Source of the DNA: Candidatus Kapaibacterium sp.
Lineage (GTDB): Bacteria; Bacteroidota; Ignavibacteria; Kapaibacteriales; UBA2268
Assembly (NCBI GenBank): GCA_963665665.1
Contig: OY762428.1
Location: 2,976,001 to 3,040,000, forward strand
Direction: 5' to 3'
DNA length: 64,000 nt
In this document: positions 45,834-52,870 of the stretch, piece after piece
Position numbering within the stretch: the stretch's first letter is position 1
Layout of the letters: each line of letters begins with the position of its first letter
Program-made: the position numbers and the translations under genes
The notes under the pieces: model-generated
Databases searched by the model: none
What the model saw: only the letters and a program-made list of their open reading frames with translations
Told to the model about the DNA's origin: nothing

Positions 45834-48101
45834 ATGATCTTTGATCTTGATATGATTAAAGCCCACTACGCGAATTTTGCCGACAAAGTGAATAAAGCAC
45901 GCGACGTGGTTGGCAGGCCGATGACGCTTGCCGAGAAAATTCTTTATGCTCATTTATTCGATCAGAATGAATTAAAAAGCTTCAAAAGAGGCGAAGACTA
46001 TGTTAACTTTCACCCGGACAGGGTAGCGATGCAGGATGCAACCGCGCAGATGGCGCTCCTGCAATTTATGCAGGCTGGCAGGCCCCGGGCTGCAGTACCT
46101 TCCACAGTGCATTGCGACCACCTGATACAGGCTAAGGTTGGAGCTGAAACCGACCTGGCAGTAGCAAAAGATACAAATAAGGAAGTATATGATTTCCTCT
46201 CATCAGTATCAAATAAATATGGTATCGGATTCTGGAAACCCGGCGCAGGTATTATCCACCAGGTAGTGCTCGAAAACTATGCTTTCCCCGGCGGAATGAT
46301 GATCGGCACAGATTCGCACACTGTTAATGCCGGCGGCCTGGGAATGGTGGCAATCGGCGTTGGCGGAGCAGATGCTGTTGACGTAATGGCAGGTATGCCC
46401 TGGGAATTGAAATTCCCCAAACTTATCGGCGTGAAACTTACCGGTAAGATGAGCGGCTGGACTTCTGCAAAGGACGTTATACTTAAAGTTGCAGGAATCC
46501 TAACCGTTAAAGGCGGTACCGGAGCAATTGTAGAATATTTCGGGCCGGGAGCTGAATCAATTTCCTGTACGGGCAAAGGTACAATATGCAATATGGGCGC
46601 CGAAATCGGAGCTACAACCTCTACATTTGGTTTTGATGACAAGATGTATGATTATCTTGCTGCAACAGGCCGAAAAGAAGTTGCCGATATGGCGAGGGAA
46701 ATCGGCTCGTATCTTACAGGCGACGATGAAGTTTATGCTCATCCGGATGATTATTTCGATGAATTGATCGAGATAAACCTTTCTGAACTTGAGCCTCATA
46801 TCAATGGGCCGTTTACACCCGACCTTGCTACTCCGATATCAAAATTTGCAGAAGCAGTAAAAGAAAATGACTGGCCGGAAAAACTTGAAGTAGGGCTAAT
46901 CGGTTCCTGTACTAACTCATCCTACGAGGATATTTCTCGTGCTGCCTCGCTTGCACAGCAGGCAGTAGATAAAAACCTGAAAGTAAAATCAGAATATACT
47001 ATCACTCCGGGTTCCGAACTGGTTCGCTACACAATCGAACGCGACGGATTTATAAATATATTTGAAAAAATTGGCGGAGTGGTTCTGGCAAATGCCTGCG
47101 GCCCCTGCATTGGACAATGGGCAAGGCATGGCGCCGATAAAAAAGAAAAAAATGCAATTATAACATCATTCAACAGGAACTTTGCCAAGAGAAATGACGG
47201 CAACCCGAATACACACGGATTCGTGGCTTCGCCCGAAATGGTTACTGCCATGGCAATAAGCGGTAGTATGCTGTTTAATCCCATGACTGATAAACTAATG
47301 AATGAAAACGGCGAAGAAGTTATGCTGGACGAGCCGACAGGCGAAGAACTCCCCGCAAAGGGATTCGATGTTGAAGATCCGGGATACCAGGCTCCTGCAG
47401 ATGACGGCAGTGGTATTGAAGTTGTTGTTAGTCCGGAATCCGAGCGTCTTCAGATTCTTACTCCGTTTGCCCCATGGGACGGAAAGGACTATACCGGCCT
47501 GAAACTATTGATTAAAGCTTTCGGAAAATGCACAACTGACCATATTTCAATGGCCGGCCCCTGGCTAAGGTTCCGCGGCCATCTGGATAATATTTCCAAT
47601 AATATGCTTACCGGTGCTGTTAATGCATTCAACAAGGAAACAAACAAGGTTAAAAACCAGCTTTCCGGCGGGTACGGTGGTGTTCCTGATGTACAGAGGG
47701 AATATAAAGCTGATGGTATTGCATCCATAGTTGTTGGCGATGAAAACTACGGCGAGGGTTCCTCACGTGAGCATGCCGCCATGGAACCAAGGCATCTTGG
47801 GGTGAAAGTTGTTCTGGTGAAATCATTTGCAAGAATTCACGAAACAAACCTTAAAAAACAGGGTATGCTTGGAATTACTTTCGAAAACAAGGACGATTAT
47901 GATAAAATCCTCGAAGACGATACTATTGATATTAAAGGCCTTGCAGAATTTGCTCCGGGTAAACAGTTAACTGTTGTGCTTCATCATAAGGATGGCAGCG
48001 TGGAGGAATTCCAGGTTAACCATACATATAACCAGTACCAGATAGAATGGTTTAAAGCAGGTTCGGCGCTGAATCTTATTCGTAAGCAATTCGGCGGCTG
48101 A
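45834..48101 (+). CDS. Aconitate hydratase (mitochondrial-type)
   Basis: [64 protein letters not shown]. Confidence 0.96.
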
Positions 48102-48130
48102 TTCTCAAAACAGTTCTAATATATAATTAC

Positions 48131-48165
48131 ATCGTCCGGTGATCTTATTTCGCCGGACGATTTTT
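48131..48165 (+). terminator. Intrinsic terminator after aconitase
   Basis: ATCGTCCGGTGA-loop-TCGCCGGACGAT followed by a T-run. Confidence 0.8.
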
Positions 48166-48320
48166 GTTTGTTAATTTCTGTTGAAATTAAATGATGTTAC
48201 AGGAATAAGATATCATTACTCTGAAAAAACATTATGAGAATAATGGCGTAAATTAACATGTCGGATTTATTAATAATTGTTACTGTATCAATAAATCTGA
48301 ACAATAAAATATTATCATGC

Positions 48321-49814
48321 CTGACCTCCCCAAACCCCTCTCCTTCGGGGAAGTTGCCACACCTCGTGTGTTTGGGAGGTGTCAGAAGCTAAGCACCAAT
48401 GTTCGAAGATATTTCCGCCCTGGTCGGAAGCAAAGAAAGAAAACCACCCCTGTATTCCCCTCCTCCGCGAGGAGGGGATAAGAAGTTAAATATCATAGAA
48501 TTAACTCCTCATCCTTCCGAAGGAGGTGGCCGGGGGGAGGTAGGAAGGTTCGGAAGCAAAGCACCAATGTTCGAACCTATTGCAGCCTTATTCTTCTTCA
48601 AAGCCCGCCCCTTCGGGGAGGGTTTGGGAGGGGTCAGGAATATTGCAGCAATGTTTTGCTTTATTGCTGCCTTGTTCGGAGTCATTGCCGCCCTGGTCGG
48701 AAGCAAAGCAAGAAAACCACCCCTATATTCCCCTCCTACTTTAGGAGGGGATAAGAAGTTAAATATCATAGAATTAACTCCTCATCCTTCCGAAGGAGGT
48801 GGCCGGGGGGAGGTAGGAAGGTTCGGAAGCAAAGCACCAATGTTCGAACCTATTGCAGCCTTATTCTTCTTCAAAGCCCGCCCCTTCGGGGAGGGTTTGG
48901 GAGGGGTCAGGAATATTGCAGCAATGTTTTGCTTTATTGCTGCCTTGGTCGGAGTCATTGCCGCCTTGTTCCGAAGCAAAGCAAGAAAACCACCCCTATA
49001 TTCCCCTCCTACTTTAGGAGGGGATAAGAAGTTAAATATCATAGAATTAACTCCTCATCCTTCCGAAGGAGGTGGCCGGGGGGAGGTAGGAAGGTTCGGA
49101 AGCAAAGCACCAATGTTCGAACCTATTGCAGCCTTATTCTTCTTCAAAGCCCGCCCCTTCGGGGAGGGTTTGGGAGGGGTCAGGAATATTGCAGCAATGT
49201 TTTGCTTTATTGCTGCCTTGGTCGGAGTCATTTCCGCCTTGTTCCGAAGCAAAGCAAGAAAACCACCCCTGTATTCCCCTCCTCTGCGAGGAGGGGATAA
49301 GAAGTTAAATATCATAGAATTAACTCCCCCTTCTTCCGAAGGATGTGCCCGGGGGGAGGTAGGAAGGTTCGGAAGCAAAGCACCAAAGTTTGATGATATT
49401 GCCGCCCTGGTCGGAAGCAAAGCAAGAAAACCACCCCTGTATTCCCCTCCTCCGCGAGGAGAGGATAAGAAGTTAAATATCATAGAATTAACTCCCCCTC
49501 CTTCCGAAGGAGGGGGGCGGGGGGAGGTAGGAAGAGTCTATGGTAATGCACCGATGTTCGAACCCATTGCCTCCTTATTTTCCATCAAAGCCCTCTCCTT
49601 CGGGGAGGGTTTGGGAGGGGTCAGAGTCATTGACGCCTTGGTCGGAGTCATTGCCGCCTTGTTCCGAAGCAAAGCAAGAAAACCACCCCTATATTCCCCT
49701 CCTACTTTAGGAGGGGATAAGAAGTTAAATATCATAGAATTAACTCCCCCTCCTTCCGAAGGATGTGCCCGGGGTGAAGTAGGAAGGGTCGAAAGCAAAG
49801 AACAAATGTTCTAA
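48321..49814. repeat. Higher-order tandem array of REP-like hairpin modules embedded in degenerate 21-mers (6 copies of the main module)
   Basis: AAACCACCCCT starts at 48441, 48714, 48987, 49260, 49428 and 49680 (spacings 273, 273, 273, 168, 252). Confidence 0.92.
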
Positions 49815-50171
49815 GTCATTGCCGCCTTGTTTGAAGATAATGAACTCTTGGTCGACACTATTGCAGCAATGTTTTGCTTTATTGATGCCTTGTTCGAAGC
49901 TATTGCAGCAATGTTTTGCTTTATTGCTGCCTTGGTTGAAGATAATGAACTCTTGGTTGAAGCTATTGCAGCAATGTTTTGCTTTATTGCTGTCTTGGTC
50001 GGAGTCATTGACGCCTTGTTCGGAGTTATTGCTGCCTTGTTCAGAGTCATTGCTGCCTTGTTCAGAGTTATTGCTGCCTTGTTCGGAGTTATTGCTGCCT
50101 TGTTCAGAGTCATTGCTGCCTTGTTCAGAGTTATTGCTGCCTTGTTCGGAGTTATTGCTGCCTTGTTTGAA
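49815..50171. repeat. 21-bp minisatellite, family 1 (GTYATTGCTGCCTTGTTCRGA-like), 17 units
   Basis: Counted directly in 21-bp register from 49815. Confidence 0.92.
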
Positions 50172-50183
50172 GATAATGAGTAA

Positions 50184-50519
50184 CCTCAATAAGGTCAAAC
50201 AAGTCCTCAATAAGGCTAAACAAGTCCTCAGTAAGGCTAAACAAGTCCTCAGTAAAGTCAAACAAGTCCTCAGTAAAGTCAAACAAGTCCTCAGTAAAGT
50301 CAAACAAGTCCTCAATAAAGTCAAACAAGACCTCAGTAAGGCCAAACAAGACCTCAGTAAGGCCAAACAAGACCTCAATAAGGTCAAACAAGACCTCAGT
50401 AAGGCCAAACAAGACCTCAATAAGGTCAAACAAGACCTCAGTAAGGCCAAACAAGACCTCAATAAGGCTAAACAAGTCCTCAATGAAGCCAAATTTCACT
50501 ACATTAAGGCCAAACAGTA
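50184..50519. repeat. 21-bp minisatellite, family 2 (CCTCARTAARGYYAAACAAGW), 14 units plus 2 degenerate
   Basis: Counted directly. Reads L(N/S)K(A/V)KQ(V/D) on the + strand. Confidence 0.92.
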
Positions 50520-50719
50520 GTTCAATACCACCGGCCAGGGCAGTTTAAAGCTTTACCAATAAAGCAATTAGCCCAAACATTTGGATTCTGGTTCAAAACA
50601 GCGTTGAAGTAAGGGAATTATCCGGTTCATTGAAACCACAGGATAGGGAATTAAGTCCGGCGGCCTGTTCATTTGGGTGGAAGAACGGGTAAACTGAGCA
50701 AAAGAATGAGGTGTTATGT

Positions 50720-51588
50720 TGTCATTCCCCGACACGTCACCGAAAAATCGGTGCAGGCAGGGGCAGGCTTCCGGAGCTTGCGACTGAAGAATCCATCTTT
50801 CTTGCGGATAATTTATGAAGAATGGATCCTTCGCTTCGCTCAGGATGACATGCAGTTTTACCATCGTCAAGTTCAATAGCCACGTGCTTTAGCTCGTGGA
50901 TAAAGATGCAAGGTGCGGAGGCAAAGAAAAAGAATCCACCCCGACTCGCTGCGCTTGCCACCCCTCAACTGGAGGGGAATTATTTAAGAATCCACCCCGC
51001 CCTTCGGGGAACAGTGAGCTAATGTCCCCCTCAACGAGGGGGTGGCCGTTAGGCCGGGGGAGGATTCTTCGATTTGTAATTATTAGTTTATCAATTAGGA
51101 AGTCCACCCCCGTCCTTCGGACACCCCCGCCAGCGGGGGACATTCCCATCCGTCATTCTGAATGAGCTTGCGACTGAAGAATCCATCTTCGTTTGCAGAT
51201 AGTGTGTGAAGAATCCACCCCTGCCTGTCCCGACGTGTCGGGAACTCGCTGCACTCGCCACCCCTCAACGAGGGGAATTTTAAGAATCCACCCCCGCCCT
51301 TCGGGCACTCGTCCTAAATTAGGAGGGGATAAGAAATTAAATATCATAGAATTAACTCCTCATCCTTCCAAAGGAGGTGGCCGGGGGGAGGTAGGAAGGG
51401 TCGGAAGCAAAGCACCGATGTTCTAAGTCATTGCCGACTTATTCTTCTTCAAAGCCATCCCCTTCGGGGAGGGTTTGGGAGGGGTCGAAAGCAATGCACT
51501 GATGTTTTAAGCCATTGCCGCCTTATTCTTCTTCAAAGCCCTCTCCTTTGGGGAAGTTGCCACACCGCGTGTGTTTGGGAGGGGTCGT
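50720..51588. repeat. Composite REP-like cluster (GTCATT..GAAGAATCC pair, TCCACCCC..CCCCTC..GAGGGG units, and a further copy of the 48.4-kb modules)
   Basis: Multiple palindromes. 51323-51480 resembles the 48474-48635 segment. TTGCCACACC.CGTGTGTTTGGGAGG occurs at both ~48354 and ~51557. Confidence 0.8.
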
Positions 51589-51655
51589 CAACTGAATTGT
51601 AATAATCAATAACTGCGACTTTACAAATTACGTGGATTCCGGTTTCAAAAATCAT

Positions 51656-51690
51656 AAAAAAAGCCCCTTCAATATCAAATCAAAGGGGCT
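51656..51690 (-). terminator. Intrinsic terminator of the cyclophilin operon
   Basis: AGCCCCTT...AAGGGGCT stem, with an A-run on the + strand (U-run on -). Confidence 0.7.
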
Positions 51691-51711
51691 GGCTCGTAAT
51701 TAAATTTCTAA

Positions 51712-52227
51712 TTAATCATTTAGCTTGACAACTTTCATTTCAATTTTATCAAGTGGTCCGTCCATGCGGTCGCGCGGGGAGTTTACGATTTTATCAGCAA
51801 CATCCATACCTTCGGTTACCTGGCCGAAAACTGTATATTGCCTGTCCAAGTGCGGAGAGTCCTGAACCATAATAAAGAACTGAGAAGTAGCGCTGTTAAT
51901 ATCATTTCCTTTTCTTGCAGTTGAAAGGATGCCGCGTTTATGGGAAATGTCGCTGAATTCAGCAGGAACGGTTTTCTGGCCCGGGGCGCCCATGCCCCAT
52001 GTATTCCTGGGTTTATCTTTAGAATTCGGGTCGCCGCCCTGGATCATGAATCCGGGTATTACCCTGTGAAATGCTGTTCCGTCGTAGGAGCCTTCTTTAA
52101 CCAGGTTCTCAAAATTCGCGCAATGCTTAGGAGCAACATCCGGCCAGAGTTCCAAAATTATCTTACCCATTTCCTCACCATTCTGGCTTGCTGTCATTTC
52201 GTATTTCGGTTTATTTGTATTTTCCAT
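51712..52227 (-). CDS. Cyclophilin-type peptidyl-prolyl isomerase (cytoplasmic)
   Basis: YDGTAFHRVIPGFMIQGGD, SATSQFFI, HLDRQYTVFG. No signal peptide. Confidence 0.95.
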   Translation of the reverse strand: MENTNKPKYEMTASQNGEEMGKIILELWPDVAPKHCANFENLVKEGSYDGTAFHRVIPGFMIQGGDPNSKDKPRNTWGMGAPGQKTVPAEFSDISHKRGILSTARKGNDINSATSQFFIMVQDSPHLDRQYTVFGQVTEGMDVADKIVNSPRDRMDGPLDKIEMKVVKLND

Positions 52228-52237
52228 TTATCTTCCG

Positions 52238-52870
52238 TTAATCATTTAATTTAACAATTTTCATTTCAATTTTATCAAGAGGACCGTTTTTCTTATCAAC
52301 TCGTGAGTTAACTACTTTATCAGCAACGTCCATTCCACTCAGCACATGTCCGAAAACAGTATATTGTCTGTCTAAGTGCGGGGAATCTTCAACCATAATA
52401 AAGAACTGCGAAGTTGCACTGTTTATGTCTCCGCCTTTCCTTGCAGTTGAAAGAATACCGCGTTTATGGGAAATATCGCTGAACTCAGCCGGTACTGTTT
52501 TCTGGCTCGGGTCACCCATTCCCCAGGTATTTCTTGGTTTATTTTTAGAGTTGGGGTCGCCTCCCTGAATCATAAACCCCGGTATTACCCTGTGGAATGC
52601 CGTACCATCGTAAAATCCAGTTTTAACAAGATTATCAAAGTTTGCGCAATGCTTTGGAGCTACATTCGGCCACAATTCCAGTACAATCTTTCCAAGTTCT
52701 TTTCCCTTTTGGGTAACAGTAATCTCATATTTCGGGTTTGTAGATTTTTCTATTGATTTTTCTGCTACTTTCTTTTCTTCCTTCTTTGTTGCTGTTTCTG
52801 TTGATGAGCAGGAAATCATTGTTATTGCCAGCAGCATTGCAAGCGCACTACCCATAAATTTCTTTAACAT
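52238..52870 (-). CDS. Cyclophilin-type PPIase, lipoprotein
   Basis: GGAGG RBS, lipobox MISC, FHRVIPGFMIQGGD. Confidence 0.93.
   Translation of the reverse strand: MLKKFMGSALAMLLAITMISCSSTETATKKEEKKVAEKSIEKSTNPKYEITVTQKGKELGKIVLELWPNVAPKHCANFDNLVKTGFYDGTAFHRVIPGFMIQGGDPNSKNKPRNTWGMGDPSQKTVPAEFSDISHKRGILSTARKGGDINSATSQFFIMVEDSPHLDRQYTVFGHVLSGMDVADKVVNSRVDKKNGPLDKIEMKIVKLND

Follow-up and report, generated by a model that had tools for sequence, protein, structure and literature searches.

The 64,000-nucleotide window examined here (assembly GCA_963665665.1 of Candidatus Kapaibacterium sp., contig OY762428.1, positions 2,976,001 to 3,040,000; all window coordinates below count from its first letter) contains a 1.8-kb repeat array at 48387-50171 that combines 21-bp units with two kinds of repetitive extragenic palindromic (REP)-like hairpin cassettes, referred to here as modules A and B. 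Its first and longest part is an in-register mosaic of 68 rows of 21 bp (48387..49814, plus strand), in which plain 21-mers are interspersed with six A modules of 126 bp (starts 48429, 48702, 48975, 49248, 49416 and 49668) and four B modules of 42 bp (starts 48597, 48870, 49143 and 49584), all on the plus strand. The mosaic is followed by array 1, which consists of 17 plain 21-bp units (49815..50171, plus strand) with the conserved core ATTG..GCCTTG.T; frame 0 of these units reads VIAALF(G/R/E). The locus sits in a repeat-filled gap of 3.5 kb that is bounded by the terminators of two convergent genes. On the left is an aconitase gene (45834-48101, plus strand; Aconitase and Aconitase_C domains), whose intrinsic-terminator-like hairpin (48131..48161, plus strand), a stem of 12 pairs with a run of T after it, delimits the presumably untranscribed gap on its left side; on the right is a cyclophilin gene (51712-52227, minus strand; Pro_isomerase domain), whose own intrinsic-terminator-like hairpin (51662..51690, minus strand) marks the right limit.

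The first-pass annotation of this DNA had proposed that the degenerate 21-mers and the embedded palindromic modules share a single register, and a layout of the sequence in rows of 21 agreed with every coordinate that it gave. Rows counted from 48387 are still in phase at 49815 (68x21) and 50151 (84x21), successive A modules are spaced by 273, 273, 273, 168 and 252 bp, and the lengths of A and B correspond to 6x21 and 2x21 bp. Autocorrelation over 48387-50171 returned its strongest lags at 273, 546, 441, 63, 252, 168, 420, 21, 105, 84 and 42, each a multiple of 21, with a mean identity of 0.384 at lags divisible by 21 versus 0.21-0.28 in the other lag classes. Within the same stretch, Tandem Repeats Finder called periods of 273 (3.6 copies, 96% matches), 168, 21, 42 and 63; the 273-bp higher-order repeat extends over 48411-49390 on the plus strand. 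Further calls by the program were an 84-bp period at 51394-51554 and, at 50183-50493, another array of 21-bp units. The row layout runs past the end originally claimed for the array: array 2 (50183..50520, plus strand), made up of ~16 units of 21 bp that represent a diverged inverted copy of the array-1 unit, keeps the same rows. Array 2 gives way to what we term the R core, a conserved, non-repetitive segment of 212 bp (50521..50732, plus strand) whose first ~60 bp are decayed array-2 units.

BLAST searches of the host genome (a single contig of 5,458,198 bp, 38.6% GC) with parts of this locus yielded merged intervals for 101 A, 91 B, 85 array-1, 54 array-2 and 254 right-hand (query R485) matches. 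Both arrays are found together at 46 loci, invariably in the order A(126 bp)n, B(42 bp)n, array 1, inverted array 2 and 212-bp R core, with A and B keeping the same orientation throughout a mosaic. Such composite copies span 1.3-3.5 kb, are distributed round the whole chromosome, and bring the family to a total of ~86 kb, or ~1.6% of the 5.46-Mb genome. All 46 loci are intergenic, lying between long open reading frames (ORFs) that form 21 convergent, 19 tandem (in either orientation) and 6 divergent gene pairs. The R core has been retained at ~90% identity to its consensus across 40 aligned copies; the consensus has stops in all six frames, and the folding of 39 distinct copies (-9.4 for the plus strand, -1.0 for the minus strand) revealed no convincing structure. 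Neither terminal inverted repeats nor target duplications were found for the composite as a whole, the boundaries of which are obscured by REPs of other kinds. No copy of the family is more expanded than the 1.8-kb array, which is probably best described as a member of a lineage-specific, likely non-coding composite repeat that is present in ~46 full copies and a number of partial ones.

The apparent restriction of the family to this lineage rests on several searches. None of 40 related genomes of the same family and order matched the R-core DNA; a two-unit array-1 pattern, in strict or loose form, gave 0 matches in genome_contigs and 0 in metagenome_contigs; a 21-nt word from the R core gave 0 matches in metagenome_contigs; and the plasmid and phage collections held no match to the family, with the caveat that these contig, plasmid and phage collections may exclude the host genome itself and very close ones. 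A scan of 47500-52500 against Rfam 15 gave best scores of 22-27.5 bits, compared with gathering scores of 42-63, and no account of this repeat family emerged from literature searches on tandem 21-bp REP repeats or, among the papers listed by title and abstract, on Kapabacteria. The host genome, at 5.46 Mb, is larger than the 24 searched genomes of the same family (2.0-4.6 Mb).

The register recurs across the family. Phase was scored at 44 of the 46 loci (two were dropped for lack of array-1 anchors), and one common phase accommodated 489 of 495 array-1 anchors, 306 of 321 in array 2, 48 of 66 A modules and 54 of 55 B modules; where B is flanked by 21-mers on both sides, phase is kept in 44 of 46 cases. 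The off-phase anchors comprise 10 A copies in a separate 132-bp array of one locus, ~4 A copies beyond the R core, three loci split by an inserted insertion sequence (IS), and two small shifts. Since the register recurs in all 44 scored loci, it cannot be a quirk of a single locus, and the A and B lengths, taken modulo 21 in homologous mosaics, recur genome-wide rather than proving unrelated to 21 as the first-pass annotation had allowed they might. The locus with the separate array is loc1351227 (~1351227-1356858): upstream of its mosaic, A cores are arranged in a distinct tandem array whose period, ~132 bp, is not divisible by 21. Three copies of an ORF of 133 aa with a DUF559 (Vsr-like endonuclease) domain are interspersed in it.

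Module A is nearly constant in size: among the 50 copies having both flanks, 49 measure 126 bp with identical internal distances and one measures 127 bp, and variation is concentrated in hairpin loops and edges, the stems being invariant. Outside arrays, isolated A takes the form of a ~99-bp REP doublet (an outer stem and two inner hairpins), and isolated B that of a ~78-bp doublet resembling a REP doublet forming a hairpin (REPIN), with a left arm, a spacer and a right arm, the last of which corresponds to the B module of the arrays. The 273-bp block folds with the A and B hairpins (z -2.9). When the inner units of A and B are compared with plain 21-mers, in-phase alignment gives no higher similarity than out-of-phase alignment; the test counts for the inner units alone, since the comparison library contained the first units of both modules. 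This suggests that the cassette cores are foreign REP sequence and not mutated 21-mers. Only the cassette edges resemble the heads and tails of 21-mer units when rows are read by eye. Because all A and all B copies descend from two fixed-length cassettes, the family supplies just two independent in-phase lengths, plus one out-of-phase length from a third module, B'. This derived variant, which opens the mosaic at the present locus as a REPIN-like hairpin (48322..48386, plus strand), consists of B with an extra inner hairpin of 16-17 bp, for a total of 58 or 59 bp. Three of its 9 copies have 21-mers on both sides, and in all 3 of these internal cases the register is shifted (by 16, 16 and 17).

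Changes in array length point to how the register may have been kept. The first-pass annotation had listed in-register recombination as the third of its explanations, and this one gained support, in that length changes by whole 21-bp steps are seen among paralogues and in a related strain. Array 2 differs in length by 84 bp between loc5035509 and loc5306612, which are nearly identical paralogues, and by 21 bp between the two halves of a tandem duplication of the entire composite at 1774669-1777826. The assembly of a near relative provides three proteins (P0004-P0006, on contigs of 82,688, 51,357 and 92,589 bp) that are translations, in frame 0, of loci orthologous or related to these. One of these, P0005, shows 2 mismatches to this genome after the start residue in its first ~91 residues, followed by gaps of 21, 7 and 14 residues, although this comparison relies on called ORFs, in which frameshifted differences are invisible.

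We favor, at a rough probability of 0.55, the interpretation that a mosaic resembling REPs and bacterial interspersed mosaic elements (BIMEs) became fused with a minisatellite and evolves by the gain and loss of whole units. Arrays would grow or shrink when 21-mers mispair during strand slippage or recombine unequally, with length steps limited to 21 bp or to higher-order blocks (84, 168 or 273 bp) and with the cassettes carried along unchanged. Steps of whole units with unchanged cassettes imply that the register would have been inherited from one ancestral composite and maintained mechanically rather than by selection. The 21-mers themselves probably budded from the spacer and flank of a B-type REPIN, and the composite would then have spread to those intergenic sites that tolerate it.

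Several observations weigh against this interpretation. No transposase or REP-associated tyrosine transposase (RAYT) could be tied to the family, so that its spread to 46 sites is unaccounted for. The chance that A and B are both multiples of 21 is ~1/441, or ~1/21 if the lattice itself was seeded from B, and we could conceive of no recombination mechanism that would enforce two in-phase lengths at odds of ~1/441; some constraint or some piece of history is missing from the account. Small out-of-phase indels seem to be rarer in the arrays (~2 in ~40 kb, a count that leaves out shifts caused by IS insertions) than in the R core (~5 independent events in 8.3 kb), a deficit that could reflect either array turnover or purifying selection on register. 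There are also weak coding-like signals: the dicodon score is 0.20 for frame 0 of array 1 and 0.65 for the homologous minus-strand frame of array 2, compared with 0.68 ± 0.25 for genes and -1.13 ± 0.54 for wrong frames, and the synonymous share of changes is 35% (57/161) in array-1 frame 0 and 37% (22/60) at the boundary of array 2 and the R core, against ~25% in the R core, in every frame. Finally, array-1 position 16 co-varies within loci with the facing array-2 position 7 (rho 0.67), which points to an interaction between the arms, and complementarity between the two arrays is higher within loci (59.5%) than between loci (58.3%; permutation p 2e-4).

As regards a mobilizing enzyme, a search with PF01797 returned one clear gene for a 155-aa Y1 (IS200/RAYT-like) protein, at 1821807-1822270, and one weak match. 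The clear gene is flanked on both sides by a different hairpin pair, neither A nor B, and a separate REP family probably belongs to it.

A fusion of REP cassettes with a minisatellite has parallels among known bacterial repeats. According to Bertels & Rainey (2011, PMC3116915), REPINs, which also occur in tandem clusters, and BIMEs are likewise lineage-specific and built of strictly extragenic inverted palindrome doublets that form hairpins; here, A and B are REP doublets or half-doublets, and in the blocks of 84, 168 and 273 bp flanking sequence is repeated in tandem along with them. The largest REPIN cluster in that paper, however, is ~700 bp long and contains four REPINs, whereas the stereotyped 1.3-3.5-kb composite recurs 46 times and joins two REP types, two inverted plain minisatellite arrays and a unique core of 212 bp on a 21-bp lattice. 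Of the features that define REPs and REPINs, the composite displays hairpin doublets and extragenic multi-copy occurrence, and no RAYT flanked by the same REPs was found. It also displays the ordered mosaic of REPs with defined intervening motifs that characterizes BIMEs. Alternating REP orientation and the binding of integration host factor (IHF), gyrase or DNA polymerase I (Pol I) are further features of BIMEs.

The plain arrays qualify as minisatellites or variable-number tandem repeats (VNTRs), a class with units of about 10-100 bp, in that they have head-to-tail units, periods of 21/42/63/84/168/273 and unit numbers that vary between copies and strains. Modular dispersed intergenic elements containing a variable short tandem unit include pneumococcal BOX, with its structure boxA-boxB(n)-boxC, and the mycobacterial interspersed repetitive units (MIRU-VNTR). 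The composite shares with these a fixed module order and a variable number of tandem units, and its copy number differs between strains. To our knowledge, BOX and MIRU each contain a single short array, without a second one in inverted orientation. The ORFs of MIRU overlap neighboring operon genes, whereas the mosaic lies outside transcription units, between terminators, and bears no sequence relation to BOX or MIRU. Assignment to the MIRU-type minisatellites was ruled out by this position between the terminators of convergent genes and by the 21 of 46 loci that lie between convergent genes.

Two further comparisons concern elements that insert into, or reside on, other sequences. Rickettsia palindromic elements are, according to PMC10969869, palindromic repeats inserted in frame inside functional genes. 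They resemble the present cassettes in preserving a frame, A having a single open frame, which is open in array 1 as well. An in-frame insert of that type was rejected here in view of the lack of a host gene, the lack of a Pfam family for the 471- and 118-aa frames considered below, the stops in 22 of 63 A copies, and the neutral substitution pattern. Plasmid or phage iterons, direct repeats of about 17-22 bp beside a rep gene or origin, were rejected as well, given 46 chromosomal loci with unrelated housekeeping flanks and no match in the plasmid and phage collections.

The kind of element is thus a known one; its novelty lies in the composite of five parts, in the cassettes that keep phase and in the inversion of the arrays. 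REP cassettes combined with two inverted minisatellites at ~46 intergenic sites, in a genome 1.4-2.7 times larger than those of its family relatives, make an unusually elaborate repeat for a bacterium, and they illustrate how REP elements and minisatellites may fuse into higher-order units that resemble the satellite DNA of eukaryotes.

Could the arrays instead encode heptad-repeat microproteins? In that case a reading-frame or heptad constraint would underlie the register, and the cassettes would be in-frame inserts that do no harm, as in the case of Rickettsia palindromic elements. Frame 0 is open for 471 codons through the mosaic (48399..49814, plus strand, in the ORF list) and for 118 codons in array 1, where it reads VIAALF(G/R), and the next frame holds a 114-codon ORF of K(V/A)KQ(V/D)L(S/N) repeats (50176-50520) whose ATG overlaps the preceding stop. 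Array 2 as a whole translates to the same K(V/A)KQ(V/D)L(S/N) pattern on the plus strand and to L(I/T)E(D/V)LF(D/G) on the minus strand. The candidate coding frames would be V-I-[AD]-A-L-[VF]-[EG] on the plus strand of array 1 and its convergent homolog on the minus strand of array 2, L-[TI]-E-x-L-[VF]-[DG]. These two homologous frames are the top-scoring of the six in their respective arrays by the dicodon values given above, which range from intermediate to gene-like, and their synonymous shares exceed that of the R core. Codon-7 variants that create stops are rarer than others (12, versus 42 G>C and 22 G>A), gene callers predicted frame-0 proteins both in this genome and in another assembly, and at both junction types the ATG of the next frame adjoins the stop.

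The patterns of variation argue the other way. Frame 0 of A shows 39 synonymous, 89 non-synonymous and 9 stop-involving distinct variants; the other frames give a similar picture, there is no synonymous excess, and 22 of 63 A copies contain a frame-0 stop. Array units show no period-3 entropy of the kind expected of coding sequence (third > first > second position), the mean per-position entropy in array 1 being about equal at codon positions 1, 2 and 3; ATT and TTG are invariant there even at third bases, where synonymous change would be allowed, and second positions vary freely. This genome has frame-0 stops where the related strain has none. The minus-strand frame of array 2 has a consensus stop 17 codons upstream and no ATG, and the plus-strand coiled-coil ORF (50176-50520) has a dicodon score of -0.68, like that of a wrong frame. 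Pfam gave no family for the 471-aa or 118-aa frames and only generic coiled-coil matches for 50176-50517. In the protein database, the plus-strand coiled-coil ORF had 1 weak match, the sole candidate homolog outside the lineage, and the array-1 ORF had 6 matches, all from this genome or from three contigs of the near relative. A frame constraint, moreover, would require multiples of 3 and not of 21, and hydrophobic residues at 5 of the 7 heptad positions would be unusual for a soluble coiled coil.

Taken together, these data make heptad-encoding arrays unlikely, and the first-pass suggestion of selection for a heptad frame finds no support in the neutral substitution pattern of A, its frame-0 stops or the lack of period-3 variability. 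We read the 471-aa ORF of the mosaic as spurious, a by-product of stop-free units whose lengths are multiples of 21 and not a gene, and the plain arrays are probably non-coding. The family yields long spurious ORFs of this kind, and the frame-0 ORFs of some copies sit among predicted proteins.

A functional lattice is similarly unlikely in the broader form in which it might be proposed: either ~46 phased platforms for a lineage-specific DNA-binding protein that organizes or insulates the chromosome, with cassettes at whole turns and inverted arrays giving polarity, or a pair of convergent heptad microproteins at each locus. In the narrower form of the platform idea, the 21-bp lattice, equivalent to two helical turns, would phase the binding sites of a nucleoid, segregation or silencing scaffold, and the cassettes would be kept at whole turns so that the sites face the same side of the helix. 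Consistent with this, the two array-unit profiles share a core (T2, A4, T6, G7, C12-T13-T14-G15, T17 and G19) that is conserved irrespective of codon position and so resembles a binding motif more than it does a codon pattern; the lengths of both cassettes are exactly divisible by 21; the arrays contain few small indels that break phase; and copies are spread round the whole chromosome.

Phase, however, does not appear to be guarded. B' breaks it in all three internal cases, and the arrays show no depletion of B' (Fisher p 0.31), so the selection for helical phase raised by the first-pass annotation is not supported. A second, smaller mosaic at the same locus (51312..51590, plus strand) contains an incomplete A module, two periods of 84 bp built of plain units and B, and a B' that closes it; it is internally in register, yet its A and B modules both fall at phase 16, an offset of 16 relative to the main array. 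Three loci tolerate IS insertions that shift the phase, the analysis turned up no candidate for a binding protein, and the motif was found in no relative. Orientation relative to replication is not significantly biased, with 29 of 46 copies co-oriented with the fork (p about 0.1). We therefore regard a phased protein-binding platform as quite unlikely. Were the in-phase cassette sizes to reflect a constraint after all, they would constitute a rare instance of helical or frame phasing imposed on selfish DNA, which the present evidence does not favor.

Cumulative GC skew places the origin at ~1.74 Mb (minimum) and the terminus at ~5.12 Mb (maximum), giving unequal replichores of 3.4 and 2.1 Mb. 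Ten consecutive composites at 96816-999064 are all in minus orientation, a run that was spotted post hoc.

The inverted arrangement of arrays 1 and 2 raises a further alternative, namely that they act as one long imperfect hairpin, either in RNA or as a DNA cruciform, with unit length mattering for unit-against-unit pairing. The two arrays do fold as a single long-range imperfect hairpin (-194 kcal/mol, versus -171 ± 6 for shuffles; z -3.9), and the best arms, 50110-50180 and 50416-50486, are 72% complementary over 71 nt. Facing positions show compensatory co-variation, from T:A to G:C at 16/7 (the rho of 0.67 reported above) and from A:T to C:G at 8/15 (rho 0.53), and complementarity is higher within than between loci. 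The latter difference, however, is between just ~60% and 58%, several positions are fixed mismatches, and the numbers of units in the two arms are uncorrelated (rho 0.12). Gene conversion between the arms or shared subfamily descent would explain the co-variation no less well than selection for pairing. Because the cassettes are not within the paired part, their lengths would not be explained by pairing. As for an RNA, the locus is located between two terminators, its promoter-like sites (7, versus 4.1 ± 1.9 in shuffles) are not above chance, and there is no Rfam match. A functional hairpin therefore seems very unlikely to underlie the unit length, and inheritance of the register from one ancestral composite, with mechanical maintenance, is our preferred reading here too.

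An assembly artefact, whether in the array or in its copy number, is the least credible explanation. Public short-read contigs (4 runs from two studies) do cover the flanks but stop at 48324 and resume at 51519, with none bridging the array. Against an artefact, 46 loci, each with unique flanks of its own, show the same architecture and register within one 5.46-Mb contig; contig depth summed over the repeats exceeds that of the flanks by a factor of tens, in line with a multi-copy family; and an independent assembly encodes the same modules. Arrays of this family break short-read assemblies.

The remaining parts of the gap are repetitive as well. To the left of the opening B' lies an AT-rich flank (48227..48321, plus strand) common to other copies of the family, with BLAST coverage rising from 1 to 15-34 other places from ~48222; to the right of the closing B', a flank at 51591..51660 (plus strand) is common to ~23-36 other genomic places by BLAST. 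Between the R core and the second small mosaic, a cluster of other REP-like palindromes (50733..51311, no strand assigned) is present, again by BLAST, at many more genomic places than the mosaic. A 'GTCATCCTGAGCGAAGCGAAGGATC'-like palindrome occurs at 50700-50870 and at many other places, and it reads ...VILSEAKDP... in a spurious 102-aa ORF (50568-50876, minus strand); palindromes of this kind are presumably widespread in related phyla. Within array 2, the units of the GGCC/GACC...GAGGTC type (50329-50448, minus strand) each form a 6-bp mini-hairpin followed by TTGTTTG, and a terminator scan flagged six of them consecutively.

Module A also serves as an insertion site. A 1.36-kb IS encoding a 370-aa DDE_Tnp_1 transposase, with terminal inverted repeats of ~19 bp, is present in 7 copies, at 2209795-2211154 (L011 196-1555), 136449-137843, 996915-998514, 2158284-2159737, 2483111-2484470, 371187-372543 and 1346664-1348023. 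In 5 of these 7 it occupies the same site in the G-rich 3' stem of A, with duplication of a G-rich target of ~11 bp, and the element looks like a REP-targeting IS.

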